64,000 nucleotides of DNA, taken from the IMG/VR virus record IMGVR_UViG_3300047565_000101, positions 40,801-104,800 of that record. The stretch is one strand, 5' to 3'. The notes beneath the pieces are model-generated. The model was not told where the DNA came from. It did not search any database and saw only the letters and a program-made list of their open reading frames with translations. The translations under genes were made by a program, and so were the position numbers. The stretch is from a virus. Its lineage: Duplodnaviria; Caudoviricetes. Below, in pieces: positions 40,721-61,850 of the stretch (position 1 is its first letter; every line of letters begins with the position of its first letter).

Positions 40721-41284
40721 ATGCCAATGGAGAATAAAAAACAGCAGTTAAGCGATGTTGTACATCACTGGACAGCAATCATAATGGTAACATTATTTTT
40801 GTTTCCCGTCCAGCCAGCAACAGCCTTACCTGCACCAGCAGTAAAAACTGAATACCAATTAAAGCAAGCGACGTTGCATAGACTAAGTACTACAAAATAC
40901 ACGGCTAAGCAGCAGCTCACAGAGAAAGATCTTATAGGCCTTCTTAAGGCGGTAGGATTTGAAGGTACAGGTCTTAAAAAAGCTTGGGCCATAGCAAAGA
41001 GGGAATCTAATGGACGACCACTTGCATATAACGGAAACAGAAAAACTGGAGATAGTTCCTATGGAATATTTCAAATTAACATGATAGGAAGTCTGGGAAC
41101 AGATAGACTAGAATTGTTTAAGGAGAAATTTAACATGAAAACTAAAACTGAGTTATTCGACCCAGTAACAAACGCAGAGATAACGTACTACATGACCAAT
41201 GGCGGAAAAGATTGGTCAAGCTGGAAGGGCCTAACCCCTAAAGCTAAGGAATGGCTTAAGCTATTCCCGAATAACCTAGCATGA
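40721..41284 (+). CDS. Secreted lysozyme-like/lytic transglycosylase
   Basis: N-terminal hydrophobic signal; AIAKRESNG, SYGIFQIN, LFDPVTNA, WSSW. Confidence 0.8.
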   Translation: MPMENKKQQLSDVVHHWTAIIMVTLFLFPVQPATALPAPAVKTEYQLKQATLHRLSTTKYTAKQQLTEKDLIGLLKAVGFEGTGLKKAWAIAKRESNGRPLAYNGNRKTGDSSYGIFQINMIGSLGTDRLELFKEKFNMKTKTELFDPVTNAEITYYMTNGGKDWSSWKGLTPKAKEWLKLFPNNLA

Positions 41285-44684: not shown

Positions 44685-44769
44685 TGCTACTATTATAGTA
44701 TATTGATCTTATTAAGTGCAAAATGCAGTGCGCCGAAAGTAGAGAACACATTTTAGCTTTTCATATTTG

Positions 44770-44844
44770 TAGGCCTAATCGGATTTGAACCGATACTCGA
44801 TTGTATATAAGACAATTGCTTTCACCAGATTAAGCTATAGGCCC
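44770..44844 (-). tRNA. tRNA-Ile, anticodon TAT (UAU)
   Basis: Cloverleaf GGGCCTA/TAGGCCT, D arm GCTT/AAGC, ATTGT-CTTATAT-ACAAT, T arm ATCGG-TTCAAAT-CCGAT; discriminator A; no encoded CCA. Confidence 0.9.
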
Positions 44845-46356: not shown

Positions 46357-46361
46357 TATAT

Positions 46362-46568
46362 TCTAGTCGACTGCTATTTCAGATTTAGCAAAATGTTAAT
46401 AAAATTTTATTTTTGAAAAATGTCTCTACATAGAGACCATACCAAAGCTGCTGAGAAAATAGCCCATAGTAATATCATTAGATCCATCATGTCTATTATT
46501 ATACCCCGCCTTTTATTCCAGTTGACTACTATCTCGTTTTTAGCAAAATGTTAATAGAGATTTTATTT
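46362..46568. repeat. Imperfect ~52-bp direct repeat (46362-46413 and 46517-46568)
   Basis: Exact core TTTAGCAAAATGTTAATA at 46384 and 46539, each preceded by AGTYGACT. Confidence 0.75.
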
Positions 46569-46631
46569 GTATGATACACACATATAGAAATGTCCGTTTT
46601 GTCCGATAGTCCGCCCATATGACTGGTCATA

Positions 46632-46717
46632 TGTGAGCCATATCACAAACTATTTTCTTGAAATGTCCGACATGTCCGATTTTGGATTTGATATTTGTCA
46701 GTCCCCCATGTTAAGCT
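46632..46717 (+). promoter_or_regulatory. Early promoter: CRP-type box plus TGTCAG-N10-TAAGCT
   Basis: TGTGA-N6-TCACA at 46632; PafBC-type motif at 46696. Confidence 0.7.
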
Positions 46718-46750
46718 TTATATATAAAGTTAAAGAAGAAAGGAGTTCAC

Positions 46751-46927
46751 ATGAACTCACTATATATGCCAGCGGATAGCCTTAAGCCTATCCTCCACCG
46801 TCCTACTACTATGGGACAAGGTGCAACACCTTGCACGAACTGTAACGAAACAGTTCAATTCAATACATGGAATCGACGATATGAAAATGTCGCAACAGGT
46901 TCTATCCGTTGTGCGGAGGCTAAGTAA
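46751..46927 (+). CDS. Hypothetical 58-aa protein
   Basis: AAAGGAG RBS; first gene after promoter. Confidence 0.6.
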   Translation: MNSLYMPADSLKPILHRPTTMGQGATPCTNCNETVQFNTWNRRYENVATGSIRCAEAK

Positions 46928-47103
46928 TGACTAACAAGAATTGGACAGAAATCACCATGAAGAATGGTAAGTTCCTTGAGGGTGTAGTAACTATCGAAAC
47001 CGATACACATGTATCACTATATAAACTACCTTTCCCTATCGCTAAGAAGAACATAGCGACACGAAACGAACGCCGTTTGGTAATCACCACCCAAGCCTAC
47101 TAG
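46927..47103 (+). CDS. Hypothetical 58-aa protein
   Basis: TAATG coupling; GGAGG RBS. Confidence 0.55.
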   Translation: MTNKNWTEITMKNGKFLEGVVTIETDTHVSLYKLPFPIAKKNIATRNERRLVITTQAY

Positions 47104-47104
47104 G

Positions 47105-47159
47105 TGTGAGCAACACCACACCAAATAGCCTTGCAATTGTCAGACTTATCTGATACCTT
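47105..47159 (+). promoter_or_regulatory. Early promoter: CRP-type box plus TGTCAG-N10-TACCTT
   Basis: TGTGA-N6-CCACA at 47105; motif at 47138. Confidence 0.65.
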
Positions 47160-47194
47160 AATCTTATTGAACTACTAAAGAAAGAAGAAACAAA

Positions 47195-47365
47195 ATGTCA
47201 TACGCAAGCGATTCAGTATATGGTCACTCATACTCTAAGTGGGATACTATTCAAGAAGATGTAGCAGATATGTATCTTGATGATGTCGAAGATGTCGAAG
47301 AAGATTTTGACCTTGATGATGTAGAAGATGTAGAGTTTGACCTAGATGAGTGGGAGGAGATGTAA
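47195..47365 (+). CDS. Highly acidic 56-aa protein
   Basis: 23 D/E, one K; follows promoter. Confidence 0.6.
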   Translation: MSYASDSVYGHSYSKWDTIQEDVADMYLDDVEDVEEDFDLDDVEDVEFDLDEWEEM

Positions 47366-47423
47366 TGACTATCCTCTTACTAATAACTGTCCTTTATTCT
47401 TTCCTAATGATTGGATTCATGAA

Positions 47424-47627
47424 ATGAGCGAGGGTATCTTCACAATAGAATTAGGATCGCATGGCTTTATGCTTGATACTGATTGGGCTTATGTATCTCT
47501 ATCATGGGAGCTACTAATCTCCACCGCCGTTATTATTGTCGGTGCTAAGGTATACAATAAGATAAAGAATAGTAAGAAAGAAACTCCCCTACTAGTTGAT
47601 GACAATGATGATTGGATGACAAAATGA
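47424..47627 (+). CDS. Small membrane protein
   Basis: MSEGIF start; one hydrophobic segment. Confidence 0.5.
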   Translation: MSEGIFTIELGSHGFMLDTDWAYVSLSWELLISTAVIIVGAKVYNKIKNSKKETPLLVDDNDDWMTK

Positions 47628-47746
47628 CCAGAGCAATTACTAGCCTAGTTCAAACCTTTATCGCTATCCCCGCCCTATATATGGCGAGAATCGTAGGGCG
47701 TGAGGTAATCGCAGACATGCGAGAGATGTGGCAAGAATCACATTAG
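47624..47746 (+). CDS. Hypothetical 40-aa protein
   Basis: ATGA coupling. Confidence 0.45.
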   Translation: MTRAITSLVQTFIAIPALYMARIVGREVIADMREMWQESH

Positions 47747-47751
47747 CCTAA

Positions 47752-47914
47752 CGGCGTGTCGCCTTGACAAAGTCGGCATCCGCCCCTAGCTTTTTGAGGG
47801 CGCTGTCAAGTCGAATTACGGCGTGTCGCAAAAAAATCCTGAAAATTCCTGTGATCTTAAACACACGACACACCTAGCGATATCACACAATTTGTCGGTG
47901 GGGTGCGCTACAAT
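47752..47914 (+). promoter_or_regulatory. Composite early regulatory cassette
   Basis: CGGCGTGTCG x2, CTTGACAAA, hairpin, TTACG-N17-CCTGAA, CRP-type box 47850, TGTCGG-N10-TACAAT 47893. Confidence 0.75.
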
Positions 47915-47945
47915 TCTCATATCAACACAACGAAAGGTGGACACC

Positions 47946-48107
47946 ATGTCTTCACTATATCCAATCCGCTCTATATGCGGAAACACAACCTCATACCTAG
48001 ACGGGTATGACCTTGCACATAACAATGCAGTTATCTGTTGCGATAATTGCGAAAGCATTTTGATGTGCCGTAAGGCGTGGCTCTCAATGTATGCAGGGGG
48101 TAAGTAA
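47946..48107 (+). CDS. Small Cys-containing protein
   Basis: CAACGAAAGG leader before ATG 47946. Confidence 0.6.
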   Translation: MSSLYPIRSICGNTTSYLDGYDLAHNNAVICCDNCESILMCRKAWLSMYAGGK

Positions 48108-48452
48108 TGACTATCTACGCTATCACTTCAGACTATGAAGCACCTTATGAATATTTTGCTAACAAGGTAGACGCTATTCGTGCCCTAGGTGAGGGCAAGG
48201 CTTACAATATTAAGTTTGATTACATCATAGAAATTGAGGTTAAATAAATGATTACTCTAAATTGCCGCTCATGCGATGAGCCAATGGAATCTATGTGGTT
48301 TGATTCAAGCGACATAATCGAATGTCCAGACTGTTGGGGGGATTTTGAATAATGGAAAAAGATATTTTTGGTTTTGCCGATGCTATCGAAATTGACCACC
48401 TCACCGATGAAGAAATGAAAACTATTCTAGAAATGTTTGGAGATAAAAACTA

Positions 48453-48632
48453 ATGATGACTAAAAAAGACTATGAGCGTTTCGCTTATCTACTTAACTCT
48501 ATCAATAATGGCTTTCCCGATTTTGAGGCTAAGCGTTTTCTAGTTAACAATATGTGTGAGATATTCGAAACGGATAACCCCCGTTTTGATCGTGCTAAGT
48601 TTAAAGAGGCGGTGTATGCTACATCACAGTAG
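48453..48632 (+). CDS. Hypothetical protein (DNPRFD family, paralog of 49546..49731)
   Basis: MMTKKDY...DNPRFDRAKF. Confidence 0.6.
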   Translation: MMTKKDYERFAYLLNSINNGFPDFEAKRFLVNNMCEIFETDNPRFDRAKFKEAVYATSQ

Positions 48633-48637
48633 CTACA

Positions 48638-48850
48638 CGGCGTGTCGGCTTGACAAAAGCTGATCCGCCCGCAAAAGCGTGGGGGACTGGTCACATTTAA
48701 GAAATGACCATTTTTTCCCTGAAATTTCGGCGTGTCGATTTGACAGACAATTCGGACATTTTGATGTGACTCTAATCACACGAACATCGTTCCATATTGT
48801 GAGATAAATGCGTGTCGGATTAACAATTTGTCAGACCCCTAGGCTATAAT
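48638..48850 (+). promoter_or_regulatory. Composite early regulatory cassette
   Basis: CGGCGTGTCG x2, TTAAG-N16-CCTGAA, perfect CRP-type box 48765, TGTCAG-N10-TATAAT 48829. Confidence 0.78.
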
Positions 48851-48883
48851 ACTCTTATACAAACAAACGAAAGGTGACAACTT

Positions 48884-49087
48884 ATGTCAGCAAATGTCTA
48901 CTCTGTCCGTGACTTGCTTATCGGCAAGCGTTACAACTCTTCAACTCTTTCAGGCGTGATTCTTTCCGCCGAAGACCACCCTCATGCCGTATGGTATGAG
49001 GGTTGCGATTCTTACCTCGTAGAGGTTAAGCCAGATAATTCTATCGGCACAACTTTCCGCACAGTTGCCGTAAAGGTAGGTGCATAA
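48884..49087 (+). CDS. Hypothetical protein
   Basis: AACGAAAGG leader. Confidence 0.65.
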   Translation: MSANVYSVRDLLIGKRYNSSTLSGVILSAEDHPHAVWYEGCDSYLVEVKPDNSIGTTFRTVAVKVGA

Positions 49088-49088
49088 T

Positions 49089-49211
49089 ATGGGAAGCCTA
49101 GAATTCTTTAAAATAGATGAAGACGGCGCAGGCTGGGTTTCATTCAATGAATTATCAGATGAAAAGAAACTAGAAATTGAAATAGAATTATTTCAGGAAG
49201 GTGCGCTCTAA
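49089..49211 (+). CDS. Hypothetical acidic 40-aa protein
   Basis: Fills gap; TAATG coupling downstream. Confidence 0.45.
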   Translation: MGSLEFFKIDEDGAGWVSFNELSDEKKLEIEIELFQEGAL

Positions 49212-49417
49212 TGTATAAAGTAACTTGCCAATATGATTTCGAAGAAAGTCCTCATTGGACTGGTCGCTATGATGACGAAATGGAAGCATGGCGCAATTTC
49301 TTTCTCTTCACCGATTGGGGAATGGCTAACGAATACTCAACTGTAAATATTTATACACCGTCAGCAAAATGCTACACAAAGATTTTTTACCGAGATGGAA
49401 GGGTCGTAACAAAATGA
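49211..49417 (+). CDS. Hypothetical protein
   Basis: 68-aa coupled ORF. Confidence 0.6.
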   Translation: MYKVTCQYDFEESPHWTGRYDDEMEAWRNFFLFTDWGMANEYSTVNIYTPSAKCYTKIFYRDGRVVTK

Positions 49418-49545
49418 GCATGCTATTAATCCCAACACGGGCAGGATATATTTATGAATGCCCTGAATGCGCTAGACGATTTGACCCTAGCGATATTATT
49501 GACTCATTAGAATTGACAACTGGACACGATTGCGAGGCTAAATAA

Positions 49546-49731
49546 ATGATGACTAGAAAAGACTATATCGCTACCGCCGAGATTCTAAAGTATATGAGCA
49601 ACAAAACTCACCCCGCTTTATTCTCTAAGGTTGTTACAGATTTTGCGGAGATGTTTGCAAAAGATAATCCCCGCTTTGATGTTGTTCGATTCCATGAGGC
49701 TAGCAACTACGAAATGAAAGTGGTGAAATAA
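49546..49731 (+). CDS. Hypothetical protein (DNPRFD family)
   Basis: MMTRKDY...DNPRFDVVRF. Confidence 0.6.
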   Translation: MMTRKDYIATAEILKYMSNKTHPALFSKVVTDFAEMFAKDNPRFDVVRFHEASNYEMKVVK

Positions 49732-49887
49732 TGTTGAAGGATATTATTGCTAATGAATGTTTAGACTGTGGAGAGATTGCTTTCGTGTTTGATAATGATG
49801 GGTGGATCGAATTGATGGGGTGCGCTTGCGTTGATGGCATGAATGATTTAGATTGGGTGAATGAGCCATAAAATAAATTAAATTAGA

Positions 49888-50021
49888 CGGCGTGTCGACT
49901 TGACAAAAGTCGATGCTGCCCGCAAAGGAGCGGGGTCGGGCGTGTCGTTAAGAAGATGATCTAGATCACCCTGGAATTTACGGCGTGTCGTTTTTGATTT
50001 GTCGGTCACACATGGTATAGT
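49888..50021 (+). promoter_or_regulatory. Composite early regulatory cassette
   Basis: CGGCGTGTCG x2, TTAAG-N17-CCTGGA, TGTCGG-N10-TATAGT 50000. Confidence 0.75.
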
Positions 50022-50049
50022 TCTCTTAAATCAAACGAAAGGTCAACTC

Positions 50050-50223
50050 ATGAAAACTATTGAACTTCTTGGCAACCGTGATGAGGTTGTTATTCTTTAC
50101 ACCGCTCTCGTTAATCTCATGGACATCATTGAAGATAACGGCAATGCATACGGCATGGCTCAGCCAACAGCAGATTTACTTGAGCAGATTACATATATCA
50201 AGAACACATGGGAGGAAAACTAA
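50050..50223 (+). CDS. Hypothetical protein
   Basis: AACGAAAGG leader before ATG 50050. Confidence 0.6.
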   Translation: MKTIELLGNRDEVVILYTALVNLMDIIEDNGNAYGMAQPTADLLEQITYIKNTWEEN

Positions 50224-50432
50224 TGGAATACAAAGTATATTGCATGGCTGGTGACAACTGTGGCCAGTATATCATTCTAGATGACTACGAATATGGTTTC
50301 TATGATAACGACTATATTTGCGGTGATTGTCAGAATGCTGAAGATATGGATCTTCATGATTGGTATGATGACGGAGATGACAGTTATTCCCTCGCTTCCG
50401 CTGGCTTTGGCTCAGACGAAGACTATATGTGA
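50223..50432 (+). CDS. Acidic Cys-containing protein
   Basis: GGAGG RBS; ends LASAGFGSDEDY. Confidence 0.6.
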   Translation: MEYKVYCMAGDNCGQYIILDDYEYGFYDNDYICGDCQNAEDMDLHDWYDDGDDSYSLASAGFGSDEDYM

Positions 50433-50606
50433 TTCAATTCACACCCTTCCCGCTTGACAAAGCGGGTTAGGGCCCCTAGATCTATGGGGGCAAAACTCTT
50501 GTTACGTCAAGTTACGACACACCCTGGAAATTGTGGTGTTTATCACATTCTAAATATGCGACACGCCGAGGATGGATTAGGATTTGTCGGTGCAACACGC
50601 TATAAT
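50428..50606 (+). promoter_or_regulatory. Composite early regulatory cassette
   Basis: CRP-type boxes 50428 and 50532, two hairpins, TTACG-N16-CCTGGA, CGACACGCCG 50559, TGTCGG-N10-TATAAT 50585. Confidence 0.78.
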
Positions 50607-50635
50607 ACTCTCATACCAACAACGAAAGGCAACAA

Positions 50636-50893
50636 ATGACAACTTCAACAATTAACTTCGTTAAGTTTCCGTTTACTTATCAGGGCGTGAACTTTGTATC
50701 TCGTATCTCAGAGGAATCTCGTTTTCTTCCGCAAATTAAGGCTATGGGGCAGGCGTTTATTGATATGAATATTTCAGCAATAGATGAAGTTATGCCAGAC
50801 CTAGTATCACTTAGCATTAACCAATTAAATGAGCGACTTGCTCATATCAACGACGGTGGAACAGAAATGTTTCTAGAATTGGAAGGTAACTAA
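50636..50893 (+). CDS. Hypothetical protein
   Basis: CAACGAAAGG leader. Confidence 0.65.
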   Translation: MTTSTINFVKFPFTYQGVNFVSRISEESRFLPQIKAMGQAFIDMNISAIDEVMPDLVSLSINQLNERLAHINDGGTEMFLELEGN

Positions 50894-50895
50894 TA

Positions 50896-51171
50896 ATGGG
50901 ATACACAACAGCGCTATCACTTGCAGAAGATGTGTCTATTGACGCAGGACTTGCTTATCACTTACAGGCTAATCATTACCCGCCCGTCCCTGTATCTATG
51001 GTGGATGCTTGCATCGAAGCCATCGACGCATACCATGAAGAGGACTATCAGCGACTAATCGAACTTCCAGCTGGCGTATCATGGCGTGGAGAAACTTCAT
51101 GCCCTGCATCAGCAATCGTAGAAGCGCATCACCTAGATGCTTGGCTACCACAGGAGGAATACTATGAGTAA
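50896..51171 (+). CDS. Hypothetical protein
   Basis: HLQANHYPPVP...AIVEAHHLDAW; coupled. Confidence 0.65.
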   Translation: MGYTTALSLAEDVSIDAGLAYHLQANHYPPVPVSMVDACIEAIDAYHEEDYQRLIELPAGVSWRGETSCPASAIVEAHHLDAWLPQEEYYE

Positions 51172-51304
51172 TCTTTATTCTATCTTATCAGAGCTTCACC
51201 CGAACGGTGACTTTACAGAATCTGATCTATGGGATGCTATCGCAGAATCAGAGGGAGTAGATGTCTACTCAATTATGGACGGAGACCTAACAGACTATCT
51301 GTGA
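51164..51304 (+). CDS. Acidic 46-aa protein
   Basis: AGGAGG RBS. Confidence 0.55.
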   Translation: MSNLYSILSELHPNGDFTESDLWDAIAESEGVDVYSIMDGDLTDYL

Positions 51305-51355
51305 TTTAATTCACAGCCACAGGGCTAGACAAATGTCAGACCCCACTGCTATAAT
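51300..51355 (+). promoter_or_regulatory. Early promoter: perfect CRP-type box plus TGTCAG-N10-TATAAT
   Basis: Box 51300-51315; motif 51334. Confidence 0.75.
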
Positions 51356-51390
51356 ACTCGCATAACAACAACTAATAGAACGGAAGCAAA

Positions 51391-51564
51391 ATGACAATCA
51401 ACCAAAAGACATACGAAGTAGGCGACCTATTCACGACTCTTTCATCAGGCGTGACAGGTACAATTACTGAAATCGTCAAGAACGCATCTGGCTCGGTGCG
51501 TGTTAAGTTAGATACAGATAAGGGAGAACGCTGGACAACAGTTTCAGCCGACTCGCTTTCATAA
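51391..51564 (+). CDS. Small SH3/KOW-like protein
   Basis: YEVGDLF...TGTITEI...VRVKL; follows promoter. Confidence 0.55.
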   Translation: MTINQKTYEVGDLFTTLSSGVTGTITEIVKNASGSVRVKLDTDKGERWTTVSADSLS

Positions 51565-51635
51565 CTAGATAATCGAAACAGGTGCAGTTTGAGGGAGTTC
51601 TCGCACAATGTCGTAAGTAAGAACCCTCACTAATT

Positions 51636-51657
51636 TGTCAGACAACCATGTTATACT
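51636..51657 (+). promoter_or_regulatory. Promoter TGTCAG-N10-TATACT
   Basis: Motif copy before AACGAAAGAGG leader. Confidence 0.7.
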
Positions 51658-51691
51658 AACCAACTAAACCAACCAACGAAAGAGGAATAAA

Positions 51692-52093
51692 ATGGCTAGA
51701 GGCGTATCAGTTAAGGTAGCAACAACTAAGGTAATCAAGGCTCTTGAAACAAAGTTGGCAGAAGGCAAGTCTGCTATGACTAACAATGAGAAGAAGCGCA
51801 AGGAATACGAAAAGACAGAGAAGGCCTGGTCTAAGGAAGTTGCCGATATTGTCTTTAAGCAAATCTCAAAGGCAGAAGTAAATGCACATGAGAACTGGCG
51901 TGGAGAAACAAACATCAACATTACAGTTCCTGCCAATGTAATCAAACTTCCTGAGAAGCCTTCTATTGACCTAGAGCGTGAACTAGGTGCGTATGAGATT
52001 CAGGAGATTGAGAACGCAATTCGTATTCTCAAGATGACAGATGAGGAAACAGTAAATGCTGCGACCTTCAACAAGTTGTCACAGTATCTATAA
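51692..52093 (+). CDS. Hypothetical protein
   Basis: 133 aa; AACGAAAGAGG leader. Confidence 0.7.
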   Translation: MARGVSVKVATTKVIKALETKLAEGKSAMTNNEKKRKEYEKTEKAWSKEVADIVFKQISKAEVNAHENWRGETNINITVPANVIKLPEKPSIDLERELGAYEIQEIENAIRILKMTDEETVNAATFNKLSQYL

Positions 52094-52131
52094 ATAAATA
52101 AAGTTGGTGGGGCTGTTATTCCTTACCAAAA

Positions 52132-52159
52132 CGACCTGAGTAAGTCGCCAAACTGCTCA
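52132..52159 (+). ncRNA. 28-nt H-type pseudoknot motif, copy 1
   Basis: CGAC-CTGAGTAA-GTCG-CCAAAC-TGCTCA. Confidence 0.5.
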
Positions 52160-52193
52160 CACCTTAGGGTGTCCCTACTAACAAAGGCAACAA

Positions 52194-52430
52194 ATGAAAA
52201 ATCGTTATCGTATTGAAATTTACGACGACATCAAATCAAATGATTTGACAATCAACACAGACACCTTCACAGATATTCAAGGTCTGCGAAATTATATGCA
52301 CAAGAACATTTCAAAGTTTAGCACCAAGGTTCGTGCATATGTTTATGACAATCAAGAAAACAAGAAAGTTCTAGCAGCTTTCTTACCAATGGAAACAGTT
52401 CAAGCTTTAAAGAATAAAGTTTCCGTATAA
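52194..52430 (+). CDS. Hypothetical protein
   Basis: AAAGG RBS. Confidence 0.6.
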   Translation: MKNRYRIEIYDDIKSNDLTINTDTFTDIQGLRNYMHKNISKFSTKVRAYVYDNQENKKVLAAFLPMETVQALKNKVSV

Positions 52431-52466
52431 TACTAAGAGCTGGGGATCTCTTTAAACTCCCCGCCT

Positions 52467-52604
52467 TGCCCCCAAAGGTATGGGGGCATTTTAGCTGTTA
52501 CGTCAAGTACCAAAACACCCTGAAAATTGTGGGATCGATCACATTCTCAGCATCTGAGATAGAATGTAATTAGACTATCATTTGTCGGACCCGCCTGTTA
52601 TAAT
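52467..52604 (+). promoter_or_regulatory. Composite early regulatory cassette
   Basis: GCCCCCA/TGGGGGC hairpin, TTACG-N16-CCTGAA, CRP-type box 52528, TGTCGG-N10-TATAAT 52583. Confidence 0.75.
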
Positions 52605-52635
52605 TGCCTAATCAATCAAACGAAAGAGGAAAATC

Positions 52636-53649
52636 ATGGCTCATAATCTCGAAACTGTAAACGGTGAAGTTGCTTTCGCATTGCGTGGTGCACCTGCATG
52701 GCATAATCTCGCAAACCGCATTTTCTCTAAGGATGAGGAAGTTTCGACTCAACTCATGCTCGATGAGGCTAAACTTTCCAATTGGAATGTTCGCCTCTCT
52801 CCACTAACTGATCACATCTCTGAAGAGTGGAGCGATGTTTCAAACTCTCACCTTGTATTGCGTACTAATCCTTTTAATGGCGGAACTGATGTTCTAGCTA
52901 ATGTTGGAAAGCGTTATAAGGTAGTTCAGAATGAGGAACTATTTCAATTCGCTGATTCAATTCACGATGCAGACCCTAATTGCCGTTGGGAGTCTGCTGG
53001 CTCTTTGCGTAATGGTAAAGTCGTATTCGGTACTGTTGAAATTCCTCGCACAATGGTTTTAGACCCACAAGGTGCGAACGATGAGACAAAGCTTTATCTT
53101 ATCGTATGGACATCACATGACGGTTCTGTTGCTGTTCAGGCTGCTGTAACCCCTGTTCGTGTTGTATGCCAAAACACTTTGAATCTTGCAATGCGTAATG
53201 CAAAGCAATCATTCAAGATTCGCCACACGCAAACCGCAGAAGGTAAGATTCAAATCGCACGTGAGACTCTTGGCTTAACTCTAGGCTACTTTGATGAATT
53301 CGAAAAGCAGGCTAAGGCACTATTCGAAACATCTGTTACCGATGCAAAGTTTCACGATATTATTCGTGCAATGTATCCAAAGCCTGCTGAAGATAAGTCA
53401 AAGCAGGCTCTCACAAAGTGGGAAAATAAAGTTACTCTCATCGATGACATTTATTTTAACTCACCAACTCAGACTAACATCAAGGGCACCGCTTGGGGTG
53501 TAGTTAATGCGCTTACTGAGCGCCTAGACTACTTCCGCTCAGGGCGTGGCAACTCTGAAACACTCATGGCGGGTGCATCAGGCTTTGACCCAATTCTTAC
53601 CGCTGAGAAGAATAAAATCGTAAAGCAGGTAATGTCCCTAGCGGGTTAA
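52636..53649 (+). CDS. DUF932 family phage/plasmid protein
   Basis: PAWH, YKVVQNEELF, ESAGSLRNG, SHDGS, TPVRVVCQNTL, IRHT, GTAWG..NALTE. Confidence 0.85.
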   Translation: MAHNLETVNGEVAFALRGAPAWHNLANRIFSKDEEVSTQLMLDEAKLSNWNVRLSPLTDHISEEWSDVSNSHLVLRTNPFNGGTDVLANVGKRYKVVQNEELFQFADSIHDADPNCRWESAGSLRNGKVVFGTVEIPRTMVLDPQGANDETKLYLIVWTSHDGSVAVQAAVTPVRVVCQNTLNLAMRNAKQSFKIRHTQTAEGKIQIARETLGLTLGYFDEFEKQAKALFETSVTDAKFHDIIRAMYPKPAEDKSKQALTKWENKVTLIDDIYFNSPTQTNIKGTAWGVVNALTERLDYFRSGRGNSETLMAGASGFDPILTAEKNKIVKQVMSLAG

Positions 53650-53654
53650 TAACC

Positions 53655-53682
53655 TCTCCTGAGCATGAGATAAAACTGCTCA
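53655..53682 (+). ncRNA. 28-nt H-type pseudoknot motif, copy 2
   Basis: TCTC-CTGAGCAT-GAGA-TAAAAC-TGCTCA. Confidence 0.5.
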
Positions 53683-53687
53683 CGCTA

Positions 53688-53809
53688 CGGCGTGTCGGCT
53701 TGACAAAAGCCGATCAGGGCCCCCAATGTTACGGGACGGGGTGATGTGTTACGAATCACATTTTAAATCCCTGGAATCCTTGCTATTTGTCAGTGGTGTC
53801 CGCTATAAT
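53688..53809 (+). promoter_or_regulatory. Composite early regulatory cassette
   Basis: CGGCGTGTCG, hairpin, CRP-type box 53745, TTACG-N16-CCTGGA, TGTCAG-N10-TATAAT 53788. Confidence 0.75.
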
Positions 53810-53816
53810 ACTCCAC

Positions 53817-54383
53817 ATGACAACGAACTGGAACAAGTACACATACGTATGCAACACATGCGATGGTCTATTTGAAATGACCATCCAGGCAACCAGAACA
53901 ATCGATCAAAAGCTTTGCCCATCTTGTTTTAATACAATGACATATTTGTCAGTGGCAGATGCTACAATACCTTCTACAACAACAACGAAAGAGGAACCAA
54001 TGATTGAAAACGCATTACCTGAAGTAACTGCTAAAATTGCAGAACTCGAAGCAACTCTTAAGAACCACCAGAACTGCGATTACTGGAAGTCAGAGAATGG
54101 TCGCATCGGTTCACAACTAATTAATCTAATCAATACTGCATATGAGAACGATGCAGAGGCGTCAGAGATTCTAGAATCAATCTGTGAAATCATTGACTAC
54201 AATCCTGTCAAGACAGTACAGTTTGAGGGCGTAATCCACTTCTCAGGTTCTATCGATATTCCAATGAACGAGGTTGCAGACTTTGACCTCACCTCCGCCC
54301 TTGAAGATGTCTACGTAGACATTAACAACGGCAACGTGGTTATCGATAACTACGAACTCTACTCAGTAGAGGAGCCTTACTAA
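53817..54383 (+). CDS. Zn-ribbon plus acidic domain protein; in-frame internal start at 54000
   Basis: Leaderless ATG 53817; CNTC...CPSC; internal promoter at 53947 and AACGAAAGAGG leader. Confidence 0.65.
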   Translation: MTTNWNKYTYVCNTCDGLFEMTIQATRTIDQKLCPSCFNTMTYLSVADATIPSTTTTKEEPMIENALPEVTAKIAELEATLKNHQNCDYWKSENGRIGSQLINLINTAYENDAEASEILESICEIIDYNPVKTVQFEGVIHFSGSIDIPMNEVADFDLTSALEDVYVDINNGNVVIDNYELYSVEEPY

Positions 54384-54604
54384 TGTATTTTGAACTCACC
54401 GCACCCAACCAGTCTGCCCTGAAAGGGGCATTCTGGGAGGCGGATGTAATTGGTCTTGACCCTGAATGGATTAAAGACACTCTAACATTCGTAGTTGGAA
54501 CTGGAACAATTGAGAAGGTCTCAAAGCTGCGAGATAAATTTAATCTAATTGAATCATACACATCAGAATACGAGCCCTACCATGCATACAAAGGAAGCAA
54601 ATGA
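54383..54604 (+). CDS. Hypothetical protein
   Basis: AGGAG RBS; coupled. Confidence 0.6.
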   Translation: MYFELTAPNQSALKGAFWEADVIGLDPEWIKDTLTFVVGTGTIEKVSKLRDKFNLIESYTSEYEPYHAYKGSK

Positions 54605-54783
54605 GAATCAGTTGTGATCGATGCGGAATATCTGCAGAGGCAAAGTATGTAGTTAAACTAATTGAAGGCGAATTAGCATTCTGCGGACACCATTATAATA
54701 AGTACAAAGAAGGTCTTGACAAAATAGCGTTTGAAGTAGTAGAATTAGCAACTCAACCAGAACTAGTAGAGGCGGAAGTATAA
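54601..54783 (+). CDS. Small Zn-binding protein
   Basis: CDRC...FCGHH. Confidence 0.6.
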   Translation: MRISCDRCGISAEAKYVVKLIEGELAFCGHHYNKYKEGLDKIAFEVVELATQPELVEAEV

Positions 54784-55166
54784 TGGGAGACAGAGCAAAC
54801 TTCGGATTCAAGCAGTCTAACGGTGAAACAATTATTCTCTATGGTCATTGGGCAGGCCACGACATGCTTAAGAATTTGGCAAAAGCCGTAGAGACAGCAC
54901 GTCCTCGTTGGATAGATGAGGCATATGCAACACGTATTGTTGTCTCTCAATTGGTTGGCAATGATTGGACCAGCGAGACAGGTTGGGGGCTCTCAGTAAA
55001 TACTATTCTAGACAATGAGCACAAGATTCCTGTTATCGATTGGCGCAGTGGTACCTTTAGCCTTCATGAAGAGGGCGACTGGAATGAAGACACCAAGGTC
55101 CGTGGAATGTTGGATGAGCCAATGTTCACAATGACACTGGAGAACTTCATCAAGAAATATATTTAA
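54783..55166 (+). CDS. Hypothetical protein
   Basis: MGDRAN...LYGHWAG; coupled. Confidence 0.65.
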   Translation: MGDRANFGFKQSNGETIILYGHWAGHDMLKNLAKAVETARPRWIDEAYATRIVVSQLVGNDWTSETGWGLSVNTILDNEHKIPVIDWRSGTFSLHEEGDWNEDTKVRGMLDEPMFTMTLENFIKKYI

Positions 55167-55275
55167 CTAAATAAAATGGTGCCTCTATAGTCGACATCTC
55201 ACATCGGCAAGGGGTTAAATAAAGCAGGGTTCTTTTACTTTCGTTGGTGAATCCCTAGCAGCCTTATCAATAGGA

Positions 55276-55431
55276 CTTGACAAATCCAGATCCATGCCCC
55301 CAAAAACTAAGGGTAGCAATTTTCTCTTACGAAGTCAATAAAAAATCGCCTGAAATTTGATCAAATTTTGATTCATGTGGCGGGAATCACAAGAGCTTTC
55401 TATTCCATTTGTCAGACCCCTAGTGTAAAAT
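55276..55431 (+). promoter_or_regulatory. Composite early regulatory cassette
   Basis: CTTGACAAA, TTACG-N17-CCTGAA, CRP-type box 55376, TGTCAG-N10-TAAAAT 55410. Confidence 0.72.
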
Positions 55432-55458
55432 ACTCCTATATCAACGAAAGGATATAAA

Positions 55459-56139
55459 ATGCCAAACTGGGTATCTAATTCAGTATCAATTGAAGGTTCT
55501 CCTAATCTAATTAATCAGATTAAAGAGCAAGTATCTAAGCCATATGTTATGCCTGTTGAATCTAATGGTGATTTGGCTTATTCTGTTAAAGATGTTCCTA
55601 TTGATTCCGTCTTTTCATTTTGGAATATAATTAAACCAACAGATATGGAAGCATATCCTAAGCAACCTGATTTTAAATCAGATTCACCATATTCAGGTAA
55701 TGACTGGTACTCTTGGAATAATCGTAATTGGGGTGTTAAATGGGATGCAAATAGTCCTGAATTAGTTTATGATGAGCCTAATGGTGAGAACCATGTTCTT
55801 GTATATAACTTTGATACAGCATGGGGTACTCCTAATACTGTACTAATAGAACTATCTAATCAGTTCCCGTCCGTCTTGGTTACAAATGAATATCAAGAAG
55901 AAACAGGCTGGGGTGGGTCAGCAGAGTTCGCTAATGGCAAAATGCTTTCTCATTCTGAATATAACTGGAAATGCTGGGAATGCAGTTATGAAGAATCAGA
56001 CGAACCTCCATACTGTGAGTCATGTGATTTCGATATGTGTCCTAAATGTGGCTATGGTGAGCCAACAGATGAGGACAGAGCAAATTGTCAGACCCATGGT
56101 GTAGAATCAGAACCTAAATCAACGGAGGTAGAGGCATGA
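55459..56139 (+). CDS. DUF1281/YubB-like ferredoxin-fold protein with Cys-rich C-terminus
   Basis: MPNW..N, DWYSWNNRNWGVKWDA, FDTAW motifs. Confidence 0.7.
   Translation: MPNWVSNSVSIEGSPNLINQIKEQVSKPYVMPVESNGDLAYSVKDVPIDSVFSFWNIIKPTDMEAYPKQPDFKSDSPYSGNDWYSWNNRNWGVKWDANSPELVYDEPNGENHVLVYNFDTAWGTPNTVLIELSNQFPSVLVTNEYQEETGWGGSAEFANGKMLSHSEYNWKCWECSYEESDEPPYCESCDFDMCPKCGYGEPTDEDRANCQTHGVESEPKSTEVEA
56086..56107 (+). promoter_or_regulatory. Promoter TGTCAG-N10-TAGAAT inside upstream CDS
   Basis: Motif copy before ATG 56136. Confidence 0.6.
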
Positions 56140-56296
56140 AGACAGACTACGATTTAACTGTAAAATCGTTAGTTCAAAAAATCTATGATGACCATTATTC
56201 ACATTGGGATTTCATGGAAAATATGAACGGCGGAGATTGTGATTGTAATATTCATCAAGCAATGGATTTAATAGCAACTTATTGGGAGGCAGAATA

Positions 56297-56515
56297 ATGG
56301 AAGAAATGATCGCTTATCTAGAGCTTCATGAAATTAGTCTATTACAAGATGCAGATAAGTTTCAGGATATCTTCAATACATATGAGGGTGACTTTGATAC
56401 AGATGAGTATCGTCAGTATGAGATAGAAGACATTATTAATACTGGAGAACTTTCTGCAACCCGCCACCTTTTGTCAGTGGCACGTGATATACTCGCCAAA
56501 ACGAAAGGAAACTAA
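56297..56515 (+). CDS. Acidic hypothetical protein
   Basis: GGAGG RBS before ATG 56297. Confidence 0.6.
   Translation: MEEMIAYLELHEISLLQDADKFQDIFNTYEGDFDTDEYRQYEIEDIINTGELSATRHLLSVARDILAKTKGN
56472..56493 (+). promoter_or_regulatory. Promoter TGTCAG-N10-TATACT inside upstream CDS
   Basis: Followed by AACGAAAGG leader. Confidence 0.68.
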
Positions 56516-56516
56516 C

Positions 56517-56807
56517 ATGGAACCAATGTCAGATAAGTTGCCAGAGCACCTCCAACGTCTTGTGGACCTAGGAGAATCGGGTACCGATATTCTTCACGGG
56601 GAACTAAAGAATATGATGTTAGAGGCAGAGCAAGAACTAGAAGAAATTGCTGCCCAAGAAGAAGCAGACGACTATTCAGACTCTATGGTCTCTATGGACC
56701 GAACACGTGCAGAAGGTCGACTAGACGCTTTAGTCGATGTATATAATCTAACATATCAATTGGCATTTGCTATATCGGACAGGAGAATCAAGAATGAAAC
56801 TATTTAA
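56517..56807 (+). CDS. Hypothetical protein
   Basis: AACGAAAGG leader before ATG 56517. Confidence 0.65.
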   Translation: MEPMSDKLPEHLQRLVDLGESGTDILHGELKNMMLEAEQELEEIAAQEEADDYSDSMVSMDRTRAEGRLDALVDVYNLTYQLAFAISDRRIKNETI

Positions 56808-56970
56808 AGTAATTGGAATGCGGACCACATCATTCTATATGGATGTATCTGCAGAAGATTCTAAGCAGGCTTATGATATTGCTGAATCCCGCCAAATGAT
56901 TGATTGGTCGGAAATTGAAACAGATAATGTAATCGAAATCGTCGAAGTCCTAGAGGAAGAAGAGAACTAA
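56794..56970 (+). CDS. Hypothetical protein
   Basis: AGGAG RBS before MKLFKV. Confidence 0.55.
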   Translation: MKLFKVIGMRTTSFYMDVSAEDSKQAYDIAESRQMIDWSEIETDNVIEIVEVLEEEEN

Positions 56971-57294
56971 ATGGATCTATTAGATAAGACACGTATGCAG
57001 GATACATATAACAAGTTAAACACAATCATTGAACAGACTGAAGAACTTGATGTCTTCCCATCCCTGGTTTGGGTATGGGCCTGGGATACGGCTACAACTA
57101 TTCTAAAGGATATCCGTGAAGGCGGGGAACCACAATACAATGTAACCATGGATGAAGAAGAAATGTTTGAACTATTCTGGAAGCAGGCAGACAAGAATGC
57201 TTTCAGTCTAGAATATGGCCAGGAGAGCCTATATGAAGCAATTCGTGATTGGATGTTCGATCAAGGCATCATCGAAATATATGATGGGGACTAG
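56971..57294 (+). CDS. Acidic hypothetical protein
   Basis: 107-aa coupled ORF. Confidence 0.6.
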   Translation: MDLLDKTRMQDTYNKLNTIIEQTEELDVFPSLVWVWAWDTATTILKDIREGGEPQYNVTMDEEEMFELFWKQADKNAFSLEYGQESLYEAIRDWMFDQGIIEIYDGD

Positions 57295-57451: not shown

Positions 57452-57592
57452 ATGACAACAAAGCGTGAATATCTCAAGGCACAGGGCATTACAGTAGGCG
57501 TTCGTGGACGTTTCTCTGGAGCTGCAAAGCAGGTTCTCCAGGAGGCTGAGAAGCAGGGCATCAAGTTCTCTGCTGAGAAGCCAGCCAAGTAA
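57452..57592 (+). CDS. Stand-alone Lsr2-like DNA-binding (RGR AT-hook) protein, 46 aa
   Basis: MTTKREYLKAQGITVGVRGRFSGAAKQVL resembles the Lsr2 C-terminal domain; AAAGGGG RBS; own promoter and hairpin terminator; absent from ORF track. Confidence 0.65.
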   Translation: MTTKREYLKAQGITVGVRGRFSGAAKQVLQEAEKQGIKFSAEKPAK

Positions 57593-57962: not shown

Positions 57963-58042
57963 GGCGGGGACCGAAAGATCAAATTGATCAAGTATTACTC
58001 CCTAGATCCACTATAGCTCCAATATAAAACAAATTAAACAAA

Positions 58043-58070
58043 TCTCCTGAGTATGAGAATAAACTGCTCA
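58043..58070 (+). ncRNA. 28-nt H-type pseudoknot motif, copy 3
   Basis: TCTC-CTGAGTAT-GAGA-ATAAAC-TGCTCA. Confidence 0.5.
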
Positions 58071-58074
58071 TTCT

Positions 58075-58500
58075 TCATGCCTAAAATTTAAGGGCCAATT
58101 TTTTTATTTACGACCAGATCTAAAAAATCCCTGAAACCTGGGGGAATTAGATCAATTAATCATATGATCAAATGTCGACATATAGATATATAGATCCATA
58201 TACATATATATTGATCAGAATGACGCTAATGCGATCCATATAAGGGCTAAATGTCCGTTTTACGGCATAGATCTGCAAATCCTGGATCAGATTGAGGGCA
58301 AATATCTCATATTACGAGAAGATCTACAAAATCCTTGACAAAATGAGCTGAATTTGCATCAAATGGTAGACAAATGGCCATATTTATGTATAATTTATAG
58401 ACAAATCTGGGGAAAATTGGTCAAAATTCTTGACAAATGGGCCTTTATATGATGGCGTTCTATTACACATATATATCTTTGTCGACAAATAGACAGTAAT
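58075..58500. repeat. Non-coding repeat-rich region between convergent blocks
   Basis: Three AGGGC-N12-TTACG-N16/17-CCT units; five GACAAA(A)T boxes; many GATC/AGATCT. Confidence 0.6.
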
Positions 58501-58670
58501 TCTTCTCTAATTCATAGTCATAGACATGTATGATCATATCTAGGATACCTCTAATAAGCCTTCTAAGGGGGTTTTAAGACATGTATATGAGGCGGGGGAT
58601 ACTAGGATATAGCTCACATATGAGAAAAGGCACACATGGATTGTGTGCCAATTCTCAATATTGAGCTTAA

Positions 58671-60683: not shown

Positions 60684-61850
60684 TTAATCTCCCTTAACAT
60701 TAATGATTTGCTTAAATTTATGCTTTACCTTAACTAATTCTACAGCATCTTGCATTACTGTGTCAATAGGCTTGTATGCTCCAGGGTGTTCATCAAGGAA
60801 TGCTGAAGAGTGTGACCATTCAATACCCTGCATTTTTTCCTCAAGGTCTTCCATCGTAAATGTCTTACGAGCAGAACCACGAGAATGCTGACGACCTGCG
60901 CCATGTGGAGCAGAACTATAAGACATTGGGTTTCCAAGTCCTTCAACAACATATGACAAATCACCCATTGAGCCAGGGATCAAACCAAGTTGCCCAGCCT
61001 TAGCAGAGATTGCACCTTTACGAGTAATCCAAAGTTTTTCACCAAAGTGCTCTTCTTGCTGAGTAAAGTTATGGTGACAGTTAACTTCTTCAAGTACATC
61101 AAACTCTCCAGCATGGTACTTAAAAGCAGCCTTAACACGCTTCATCATTACTTCACGATTCATCATTGCAAATGTTTGTGCCCAATTCATTTGAGCAATA
61201 TACTCATTGAACTCTGGTGTACCCTGAACAAGGTATGCCAAATCTTGATCTGGAAGTATAGTGCCGATATCAGAACAATAGTTCTGTGCAATCTTAATAT
61301 GCTTTGAAGCAATCTTATTACCAATACCACGAGAACCTGAGTGAAGAAATAGCCAAACATGTCCATCTTCATCTACTGTAACTTCAATAAAATGGTTTCC
61401 AGAACCAAGTGAACCAAGTTGTACACGCCAGTTCTTATCAAGTTCATCAGGGTTAAAACCTGCATCACGAGCATATACTTGAAGCATTGCTACTTCATCT
61501 TGTGCATCATCCTTAATACGATTGTTATACTTACCAGCAGATAGTGGAATCTGTGATTGAATTGATTCACGAATGCCCTGCTTATTTAACTCAGGAAGAT
61601 TCTCAATCTTATGTGAAGTCTTTACAGCCATCATTCCGCATCCAATGTCTACCCCAACGCATGCAGGCATGATTGCACCCTTTGTAGGGACTACAGAGCC
61701 AACTGTGGAGCCACGACCAAAGTGAACATCAGGCATCAACGCAAGGTGCGGAGAAACAAACGGCATAGAAGAAGTATTCCTAGCTTGATTCAAAGCCTCA
61801 TCTTCTACAATAGAAGCCCAATTAATTAGTTTATCTGTTATCTTATTCAA
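60684..61850 (-). CDS. rtcB: RtcB RNA ligase
   Basis: MPDVH.G, VGVDIGCGM, GSLGSGNHF.E, HSGSRG, HHN, RKGA, IPGSMG, HGAGR, AYK motifs. Confidence 0.95.
   Translation of the reverse strand: MNKITDKLINWASIVEDEALNQARNTSSMPFVSPHLALMPDVHFGRGSTVGSVVPTKGAIMPACVGVDIGCGMMAVKTSHKIENLPELNKQGIRESIQSQIPLSAGKYNNRIKDDAQDEVAMLQVYARDAGFNPDELDKNWRVQLGSLGSGNHFIEVTVDEDGHVWLFLHSGSRGIGNKIASKHIKIAQNYCSDIGTILPDQDLAYLVQGTPEFNEYIAQMNWAQTFAMMNREVMMKRVKAAFKYHAGEFDVLEEVNCHHNFTQQEEHFGEKLWITRKGAISAKAGQLGLIPGSMGDLSYVVEGLGNPMSYSSAPHGAGRQHSRGSARKTFTMEDLEEKMQGIEWSHSSAFLDEHPGAYKPIDTVMQDAVELVKVKHKFKQIINVKGD

Follow-up and report, generated by a model that had tools for sequence, protein, structure and literature searches.

An array of PafBC-type promoters with phased CRP-type boxes and WhiA-type boxes in a small-gene block of an actinophage genome

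We analyzed a window of 64,000 nucleotides (nt), positions 40,801 to 104,800 of the IMG/VR virus record IMGVR_UViG_3300047565_000101 (Duplodnaviria; Caudoviricetes). The record is the genome of an uncultured, freshwater-type actinobacterial phage; it measures 104.8 kb, with 39% G+C and overlapping ends, and is estimated to be 97% complete. It encodes WhiB, RecA, DnaB, primase, ThyX, ribonucleotide reductase and RtcB, and in its capsid protein it shares 57-59% identity with Streptomyces BE/BK phages. Within the window, about 30 mostly small orphan open reading frames (ORFs) form a plus-strand block of one- to five-gene cassettes. We consider this block probably early, with genes of host-takeover type, because its DUF932 gene resembles one that BE phages carry in their terminal repeat. 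The present analysis concerns a promoter-like motif, TGTCRG-N10-TAnnnT, that is repeated in front of these cassettes and has the geometry of promoters activated by the actinobacterial regulator PafBC.

The motif was found 16 times in the window, compared with 1.09 ± 1.04 times in shuffled sequences (largest count, 4), and 15 of these copies lie on the plus strand, all within 46.7-56.5 kb. The original prediction had listed 14 copies as early promoters; all of them were verified at their coordinates and strand, and the comparison with shuffled sequence that it proposed confirmed their enrichment. The two further copies in the window are one at 47537, in a small ORF of the same block, and one at 276, which is antisense within a structural gene and is probably a chance occurrence. 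The remainder of the genome contained one more copy, on the minus strand. A spacer scan of the whole record gave 17 copies for N10, and 2, 4, 1 and 1 for N8, N9, N11 and N12, respectively.

We then described the 14 listed promoters, named here by their first position (Table 1). Every copy is followed by an ATG 7-35 nt 3' of the -10, and a ribosome site (GAAAG/GGAG) lies between the two in most cases. Three copies are located within coding sequence (53947, 56086 and 56472). A consensus -35 is absent: 11 of 14 promoters have at most four of six matches to TTGACA at spacers of 16-19 (4/6 in three, 3/6 or fewer in eight), and only 46696, 48829 and 51334 reach 5/6, at a spacer of 18-19. In these respects the earlier description, namely a start codon after each copy, three copies in genes and mostly no good -35, was accurate. 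In many copies TG directly follows the hexamer, as in tTGTCRgtg. The flanking plus-strand genes 45508, 57452 and 57675 have -35-type rather than -26-type promoters, and outside the block the phage promoters are ordinary TTGAC-N16-18-TAnnnT. LexA boxes were absent from the block spacers, with a single match inside the DUF932 gene. Reversed TTGACA elements were inspected as minus-strand -26 promoters and ruled out.

Table 1. Coordinates of the promoters, boxes and other features, given as positions in the window
Feature	Position	Strand	Remarks
-26/-10 promoter, PafBC type	46696..46717	+	before ORF 46751; CRP-type box 48 nt upstream
-26/-10 promoter	47138..47159	+	before ORF 47195; CRP-type box 17 nt upstream; the weakest -10 in the array
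Additional motif copy, not in the earlier list	47537..47558	+	no long ORF downstream
-26/-10 promoter	47893..47914	+	before ORF 47946; CRP-type box 27 nt upstream
-26/-10 promoter	48829..48850	+	before ORF 48884; perfect CRP-type box 48 nt upstream; 7-bp WhiA-type box immediately upstream
-26/-10 promoter	50000..50021	+	before ORF 50050; WhiA box 10 nt upstream; degenerate CRP-type box (3 mismatches) at 49955-49970
-26/-10 promoter	50585..50606	+	before ORF 50636; CRP-type box 37 nt upstream; WhiA box at 50560
-26/-10 promoter	51334..51355	+	before ORF 51391; perfect CRP-type box 18 nt upstream; 5/6 -35 match
-26/-10 promoter	51636..51657	+	before conserved 133-aa ORF 51692
-26/-10 promoter	52583..52604	+	before DUF932 gene; CRP-type box 39 nt upstream
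-26/-10 promoter	53788..53809	+	before zinc-ribbon ORF; ATG 7 nt past the -10 (leaderless arrangement); CRP-type box 27 nt upstream
-26/-10 promoter	53947..53968	+	within ORF 53817-54383; before in-frame internal start 54000
-26/-10 promoter	55410..55431	+	before DUF1281/Api92-like gene; CRP-type box 18 nt upstream
-26/-10 promoter	56086..56107	+	within 3' end of DUF1281 gene; before ORF 56136
-26/-10 promoter	56472..56493	+	within ORF 56297-56515; before ORF 56517
Eleven CRP/GlxR-type boxes (palindrome scan)	46632..55391		starts 46632, 47105, 47727, 47850, 48765, 50428, 50532, 51300, 52528, 53745, 55376
Nine exact WhiA-type boxes, GACACGCC	47753..53696		plus strand 50560-50567; minus strand, ending at 47760, 47827, 48646, 48736, 49896, 49946, 49989, 53696
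Spacer modules	47753..55320	+	TTGACA with WhiA box at 47764, 48650, 49900, 53700; without WhiA box at 50454, 55277
Cassette block	46751..57294	+	opposite to most of the genome
DUF932 gene	52636..53649	+	~50% identical to the gene in the BE-phage terminal repeat
DUF1281 (Api92-like) gene	55459..56139	+	in block
Zinc-ribbon ORF	53817..54383	+	leaderless
Spacer word CCCTGRAAW	47838, 48718, 49970, 50523, 52519, 53770, 55349, 58130	+	
24-nt element	52135..52159, 53658..53682, 58046..58070	+	
tRNA-Ile, anticodon UAU	44769..44844	-	
RtcB RNA ligase	60684..61850	-	
46-aa ORF	57452..57592	+	RGR motif
Block flanks	46359..46690, 58000..58670		A+T-rich, non-coding
26-nt inverted repeat	58611..58667		in right-hand flank

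The ATG 7 nt past the -10 of promoter 53788 is consistent with transcription starting about 7 nt after the -10, and is taken to indicate no more than that. The leaderless zinc-ribbon ORF at this promoter continues in frame into the gene that begins at 54000. As this gene is served by an internal promoter and ribosome site of its own, the locus may yield both a long and a short product. We did not see the fusion in the 10 related upstream regions examined.

We next collected 80 related phage loci through DUF932, and the array was present in all of them, with 1140 sense against 3 antisense N10 copies, 7 N9 copies and 6 N11 copies. When the -10 alone was held fixed, the hexamer position was occupied by TGTCAG in 334 cases and TGTCGG in 74, while the next hexamer reached 15. 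The sequence of the N10 spacer varies from copy to copy, and the hexamer and its 10-nt distance are invariant over hundreds of distinct sites, including those in coding sequence. Five near-complete relatives carried 11-20 copies each, mostly in one block, compared with 1-2 for the control; in two relatives a divergent pair of -26 promoters stands at the block start. Cassette content varies, each gene being present in 4-80 of the 80 loci. Upstream of DUF932 in relatives we found a -26 promoter in 80 of 93 cases, a -35 promoter in one and both in nine, and homologues of other cassette genes usually have a -26 promoter, sometimes a -35 promoter or both. This alternation before the same genes is as expected if one element substitutes for the other.

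The array was not seen in cultured phages. Ten genomes (Streptomyces phages BE1, BK1, BK2 and Coruscant, three Rhodococcus, two Microbacterium and one Mycobacterium phage) showed the motif at background level, and blastn with one promoter and tblastn with the 133-aa ORF returned nothing useful as a cultured model. The BK phage TunaTartare has TTGAC at -35 (23 copies). We considered BE terminal repeats as PafBC-like and rejected them, as alignment on the -10 revealed a loose -35, with TAGACT, as the main element; GTC lies exactly at -26 in 18 of 73 partly homologous promoters (0-3 at other offsets), a subset that could possibly provide weak PafBC input in cultured phages. At the right end of Mycobacterium phage Rosebush, the word GGAGACAATGC recurs in about six places, each time at a set distance 5' of TAnnnT.

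The geometry of the motif agrees with the published PafBC consensus, tGTCgg(N10)tA(N3)T, and with the PafBC/RecA-NDp (recA P1) promoter motif in mycobacteria, as originally proposed (PMC8635444, PMC5656591). In the cryo-EM structure, PafB reads GTC with R46 and R50 and replaces the -35 contact (PMC8635444). PafBC is activated by single-stranded DNA (ssDNA) and not by ssRNA or cAMP, so that the premise of a switch by single-stranded nucleic acid stands for DNA and falls for RNA; the complex assembles only on polymerase-bound promoter DNA (PMC11804915).

Is this regulator available in the host? We infer the host from low G+C, WhiB, the capsid similarity to Streptomyces phages (58% identity) and a phage peptidase (subtilase) with homologues in 9 of 101 acI (Nanopelagicaceae) genomes and in 0 of 301 genomes across the phylum; it is likely acI. 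A putative phage surface protein had no match in the 301 phylum-wide or 61 Nanopelagicaceae genomes, and protein names gave no indication of the host. A search for pafBC in the predicted host, suggested along with the promoters, was positive: all 61 Nanopelagicaceae genomes had two or more WYL hits, mostly an adjacent pair that is typically pafBC. By alignment, the Planktophila protein is the orthologue of Mycobacterium smegmatis PafB, and the R-M-F-E-R helix containing R46 and R50 is kept in 11 of 11 examined. Host copies of the motif precede carD, dinB, recA and RecB-like nuclease genes, and its genome-wide count in hosts is just modestly above control. Upstream of host recA, the GTC-core motif was present in 25 of 26 regions and the strict form in 8 of 26; in most cases the acI recA promoter has a -26 variant that begins with C (CGTCRGTG), together with a LexA box and a WhiA box. 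On these grounds, host PafBC is the simplest reader of the -26 box, and a likely one.

Alternatively, an activator made by the phage itself, such as a MotA-like protein, an orphan mimicking PafB or the phage WhiB, could read the -26 box without ssDNA, and the original prediction had allowed for such a protein encoded outside the window. The phage does possess WhiB and many family-less orphan ORFs, and MotA/AsiA of T4 provides a precedent (PMC8635444). However, no WYL domain was found in the phage genome or 22 relatives, no PafB/PafC-type helix-turn-helix in a six-frame search of the phage, and no sigma region 2, CRP or WhiA in the phage genome using Pfam, PHROG and custom profiles; the idea of an activator elsewhere thus gained no support from the near-complete genome or its relatives. 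Of about 150 phage ORFs, WhiB alone is clearly a regulator, and the same WhiB family (48-58% identity) is present in Streptomyces BE/BK phages that have no array. The motif, moreover, belongs to the host, whose recA and carD genes carry it. We therefore regard a phage-encoded reader as improbable. The literature that we searched contained no description of promoters of PafBC type in a phage.

The second component of the array is a 16-bp palindrome of CRP/GlxR type, TGTGA-N6-TCACA, scored with at most one mismatch. Eleven of the 13 matches in the genome lie in the block (0.46 expected in shuffles, maximum 3). Such boxes stand upstream of 9 of the 14 promoters, at gaps of 17, 18, 18, 27, 27, 37, 39, 48 and 48 nt to the -26 box, which places their centers near -53, -63, -73 and -83 on one helix face; two boxes in the block have no adjoining promoter. 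The phasing was significant in this genome (Rayleigh p ~6e-4) and for 22 boxes at 21 clustered promoters in relatives (~2e-5), and across all loci the gaps peaked at 18, 27-29, 37-40, 47-50 and 59-60 nt. The host family has an Rv3676/GlxR orthologue with an identical recognition helix. The spacer word CCCTGRAAW also recurs in the block, and in relatives it has preferred distances from the -26 box.

Other host proteins might in principle read these elements, with ClgR acting on the P1-type motif and Rex or a repressor on the palindrome, although we consider this very unlikely. Rex shares the TGTGA half-site and spacing with CRP, its operator being TGTGAA-N4-TTCACA. Rex operators were rejected because the inner base is A in 48 of 992 half-sites and the Rex-type A..T pair occurs in just 1 of 496 boxes. 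ClgR has been reported as a reader of the P1 motif, as cited in PMC5656591, whereas the cryo-EM structure shows PafB reading the -26 GTC (PMC8635444).

A third element is the repeated spacer word GGCGTGTCG, which is the reverse complement of the WhiA motif GACACGCC/CGACACGCCG described in M. tuberculosis (PMC13473873). All nine exact WhiA boxes of the genome lie in the block, as do 32 of 33 in five relatives, and a WhiA gene was present in four of four acI genomes. Many of these boxes belong to spacer modules consisting of a WhiA box, 3 nt, TTGACA and a G+C hairpin, usually with no -10. In relatives, the WhiA box-TTGACA unit has a -10 at spacer 17, and so forms a full promoter, in 12 of 84 non-redundant cases. 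The modules are probable terminators/insulators or decayed promoters. DnaA boxes are not a feature of the block in this genome; in some relatives, TTATCCACA (DnaA-type) boxes are added to the spacers.

The modules without a -10, the two CRP-type boxes without a promoter and the DnaA-type boxes of some relatives would also fit a block that serves mainly as a decoy, in which replicated sites soak up CRP, WhiA and PafBC-polymerase and blunt host damage and division programs. On the other hand, every -26 box has a defined orientation and is followed at fixed distances by a -10, a ribosome site and an ATG, the CRP-type boxes are phased to them, and the PafBC complex requires polymerase-bound promoter DNA (PMC11804915). 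A decoy as the main role is accordingly a poor candidate, slightly less credible to us than a phage-encoded reader, while it could be a secondary function.

Taken together, we think it reasonably probable that the sites are real sigma-A promoters of early cassettes, that host PafBC reads their -26 box with CRP and WhiA stacked, and that the phage in this way borrows host activators. The TGTCRG box, at -28 to -23, would be read by the PafBC heterodimer, and the ssDNA-bound form would insert between sigma-A domain 4 and DNA, standing in for the -35 contact. CRP at boxes on a fixed helix face would be placed as RNA polymerase-recruiting activators are, and some promoters may respond to WhiA, perhaps together with WhiB of the phage. 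Instead of making an activator, the phage would then stack sites for conserved host activators linked to DNA damage, to cAMP/energy state and to cell division. The ssDNA could come from processed phage ends, from DNA breakdown, from replication or from earlier damage. This source, binding by each factor, the early timing, and the sign and size of the effect are, like host identity, what we infer from sequence.

Several observations weigh against this interpretation. The phage -10 elements average 5.1 of 6 matches to TATAAT compared with 3.8 at host sites; G is present at -14 in 12 of 14 promoters and a TGn-extended -10 in 8 of 14, which may leave little dependence on an activator. Together with the plain -35 promoters of homologous genes elsewhere, these near-consensus elements would suit activator-independent extended -10 promoters whose upstream boxes were captured with host DNA or add little. 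We judge this unlikely, about as much so as a phage-encoded reader, given that hexamer and spacing are invariant in hundreds of sites while spacers differ, and that the block DNA had no sizeable match, only three short ones, in 251 Nanopelagicales genomes. Further, the relatives are closely related, so that their counts show persistence and not independent origins, and cultured relatives use -35 promoters for the homologous region, which makes the coupling unnecessary for the phage group as a whole. In relatives, 53 of about 420 CRP-type boxes are off phase (gap 33-34), with another element intervening. Host motif sites that we checked had no CRP-type box upstream, leaving CRP plus PafBC without host precedent, and most phage ORFs are orphans, which leaves room for an unrecognizable activator.

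The claim that nearly the whole plus-strand block is placed under the host damage activator therefore holds in part: motif geometry and PafBC in the host family favor it, while it overlooked the phased CRP-type and WhiA boxes and is weakened by the strong -10s and by the -35 promoters in relatives. The further proposal, that an alarm triggered by infection would drive phage expression, is conjectural. Because the -10 elements are strong and in many cases extended, some basal firing is likely, and PafBC, once ssDNA appears, would more probably amplify expression than start it from zero; it probably boosts the block promoters rather than being their sole switch. Basal firing would also ease the difficulty that the first genes are needed before much ssDNA exists.

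Several other features were noted in the block and around it. The flanks of the block contain duplicated 55-nt segments and TGTCCG repeats, and are candidates for genome ends or an origin. The 46-aa ORF beyond the block matches the DNA-binding domain of Lsr2 weakly, with an E value (0.026) that misses the cut-off; BE phages encode Lsr2 within the terminal repeat. The 24-nt element CCTGAGYAWGW-N3-AAACTGCTCA was present in 194 distinct copies among related loci, was absent from host and Streptomyces phage loci, and gave no Rfam match. Its stem varies between C-G, U-G and U-A, pointing to an RNA hairpin with a conserved loop, possibly a protein-binding or antitermination site. The sole match in the Rfam search was the single tRNA-Ile, which BK and Rhodococcus relatives have as well.

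In hosts, WYL regulators are known to act as switches in DNA damage and defence, and prophage induction proceeds by repressor cleavage. If the preferred reading is true, a lytic phage would use the host ssDNA signal to activate its own genes, which would invert the WYL alarm logic and be unlike prophage induction. The broader proposal, that host-takeover genes in an abundant group of lytic freshwater actinophages are conditional on the host ssDNA sensor, integrated with CRP (cAMP) and WhiA (cell cycle) at hybrid promoters, is more tentative, and we hold it to be possible rather than probable. Under it, infection would proceed at a pace governed by the damage alarm, whether raised by the infection or by an earlier stress such as sunlight, and the co-activation of PafBC-adapted polymerase by CRP would have a geometry that has not been described. 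Hundreds of natural promoter variants constitute a library for CRP and WhiA action on the PafBC-adapted holoenzyme, and they suggest that the PafBC, CRP and WhiA regulons are intact in streamlined acI bacteria. The model is directly testable because M. smegmatis polymerase, PafBC and an ssDNA-dependent assay have been published and the reading residues are conserved; M. smegmatis would stand in for the host as a surrogate.

Compared with mycobacterial PafBC promoters (PMC8635444, PMC11804915, PMC5656591), the phage sites share the 22-nt geometry, GTC at -26, N10, TAnnnT, a frequent TG and mostly no -35. They differ in their number (14-15 copies per 10 kb), in preceding orphan rather than repair genes, in a much stronger -10 and in the phased CRP-type and WhiA boxes. 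Host recA carries a LexA box, unlike the block spacers of the phage. Class I CRP sites of Escherichia coli lie at -61.5, -71.5 and -82.5. The phage boxes resemble class I promoters and actinobacterial Crp/GlxR sites in having the palindrome on one face at about -63, -73 and -83; they are paired with a -26/-10 core instead of the canonical -35/-10, and add a position near -53 that is closer by one turn, as would be expected had the core element shifted one turn downstream. We regard them as class I-like at most and do not class them as members. WhiA/WhiB-activated promoters (PMC10243135, PMC13473873) have the exact GACACGCC in both orientations, often by TTGACA, as here, whereas most TTGACA-adjoining copies in the phage lack a -10 and the others keep fixed distances to a -26 box; WhiB is encoded by the phage itself, and no WhiA was found in it.

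Among phages, the PeSL cassettes of T4-type phages (PMC2839356) are similar in repeating promoter and stem-loop modules between small variable genes of a plastic region, but PeSLs are strong plain sigma-70 promoters, whereas the modules here carry activator sites. The terminal-repeat cassettes of Streptomyces BE/BK phages (Stanwilliamsviridae) are alike in homologous capsid, WhiB, ThyX and DUF932 and in one-gene cassettes with their own promoter, and unlike in using -35 promoters (TTGAC in TunaTartare, a loose -35 in BE) with no array. In T4 middle promoters (MotA/AsiA), an upstream box likewise replaces the -35 and redirects the housekeeping holoenzyme; T4 encodes its activators, whereas none was found here and the box is that of the host. 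The elements are each known from host chromosomes, and what the present analysis adds is their joint phased architecture in one phage genome, the examination of the regulators and target promoters on the host side, and the exchange of -26 and -35 elements before homologous genes.

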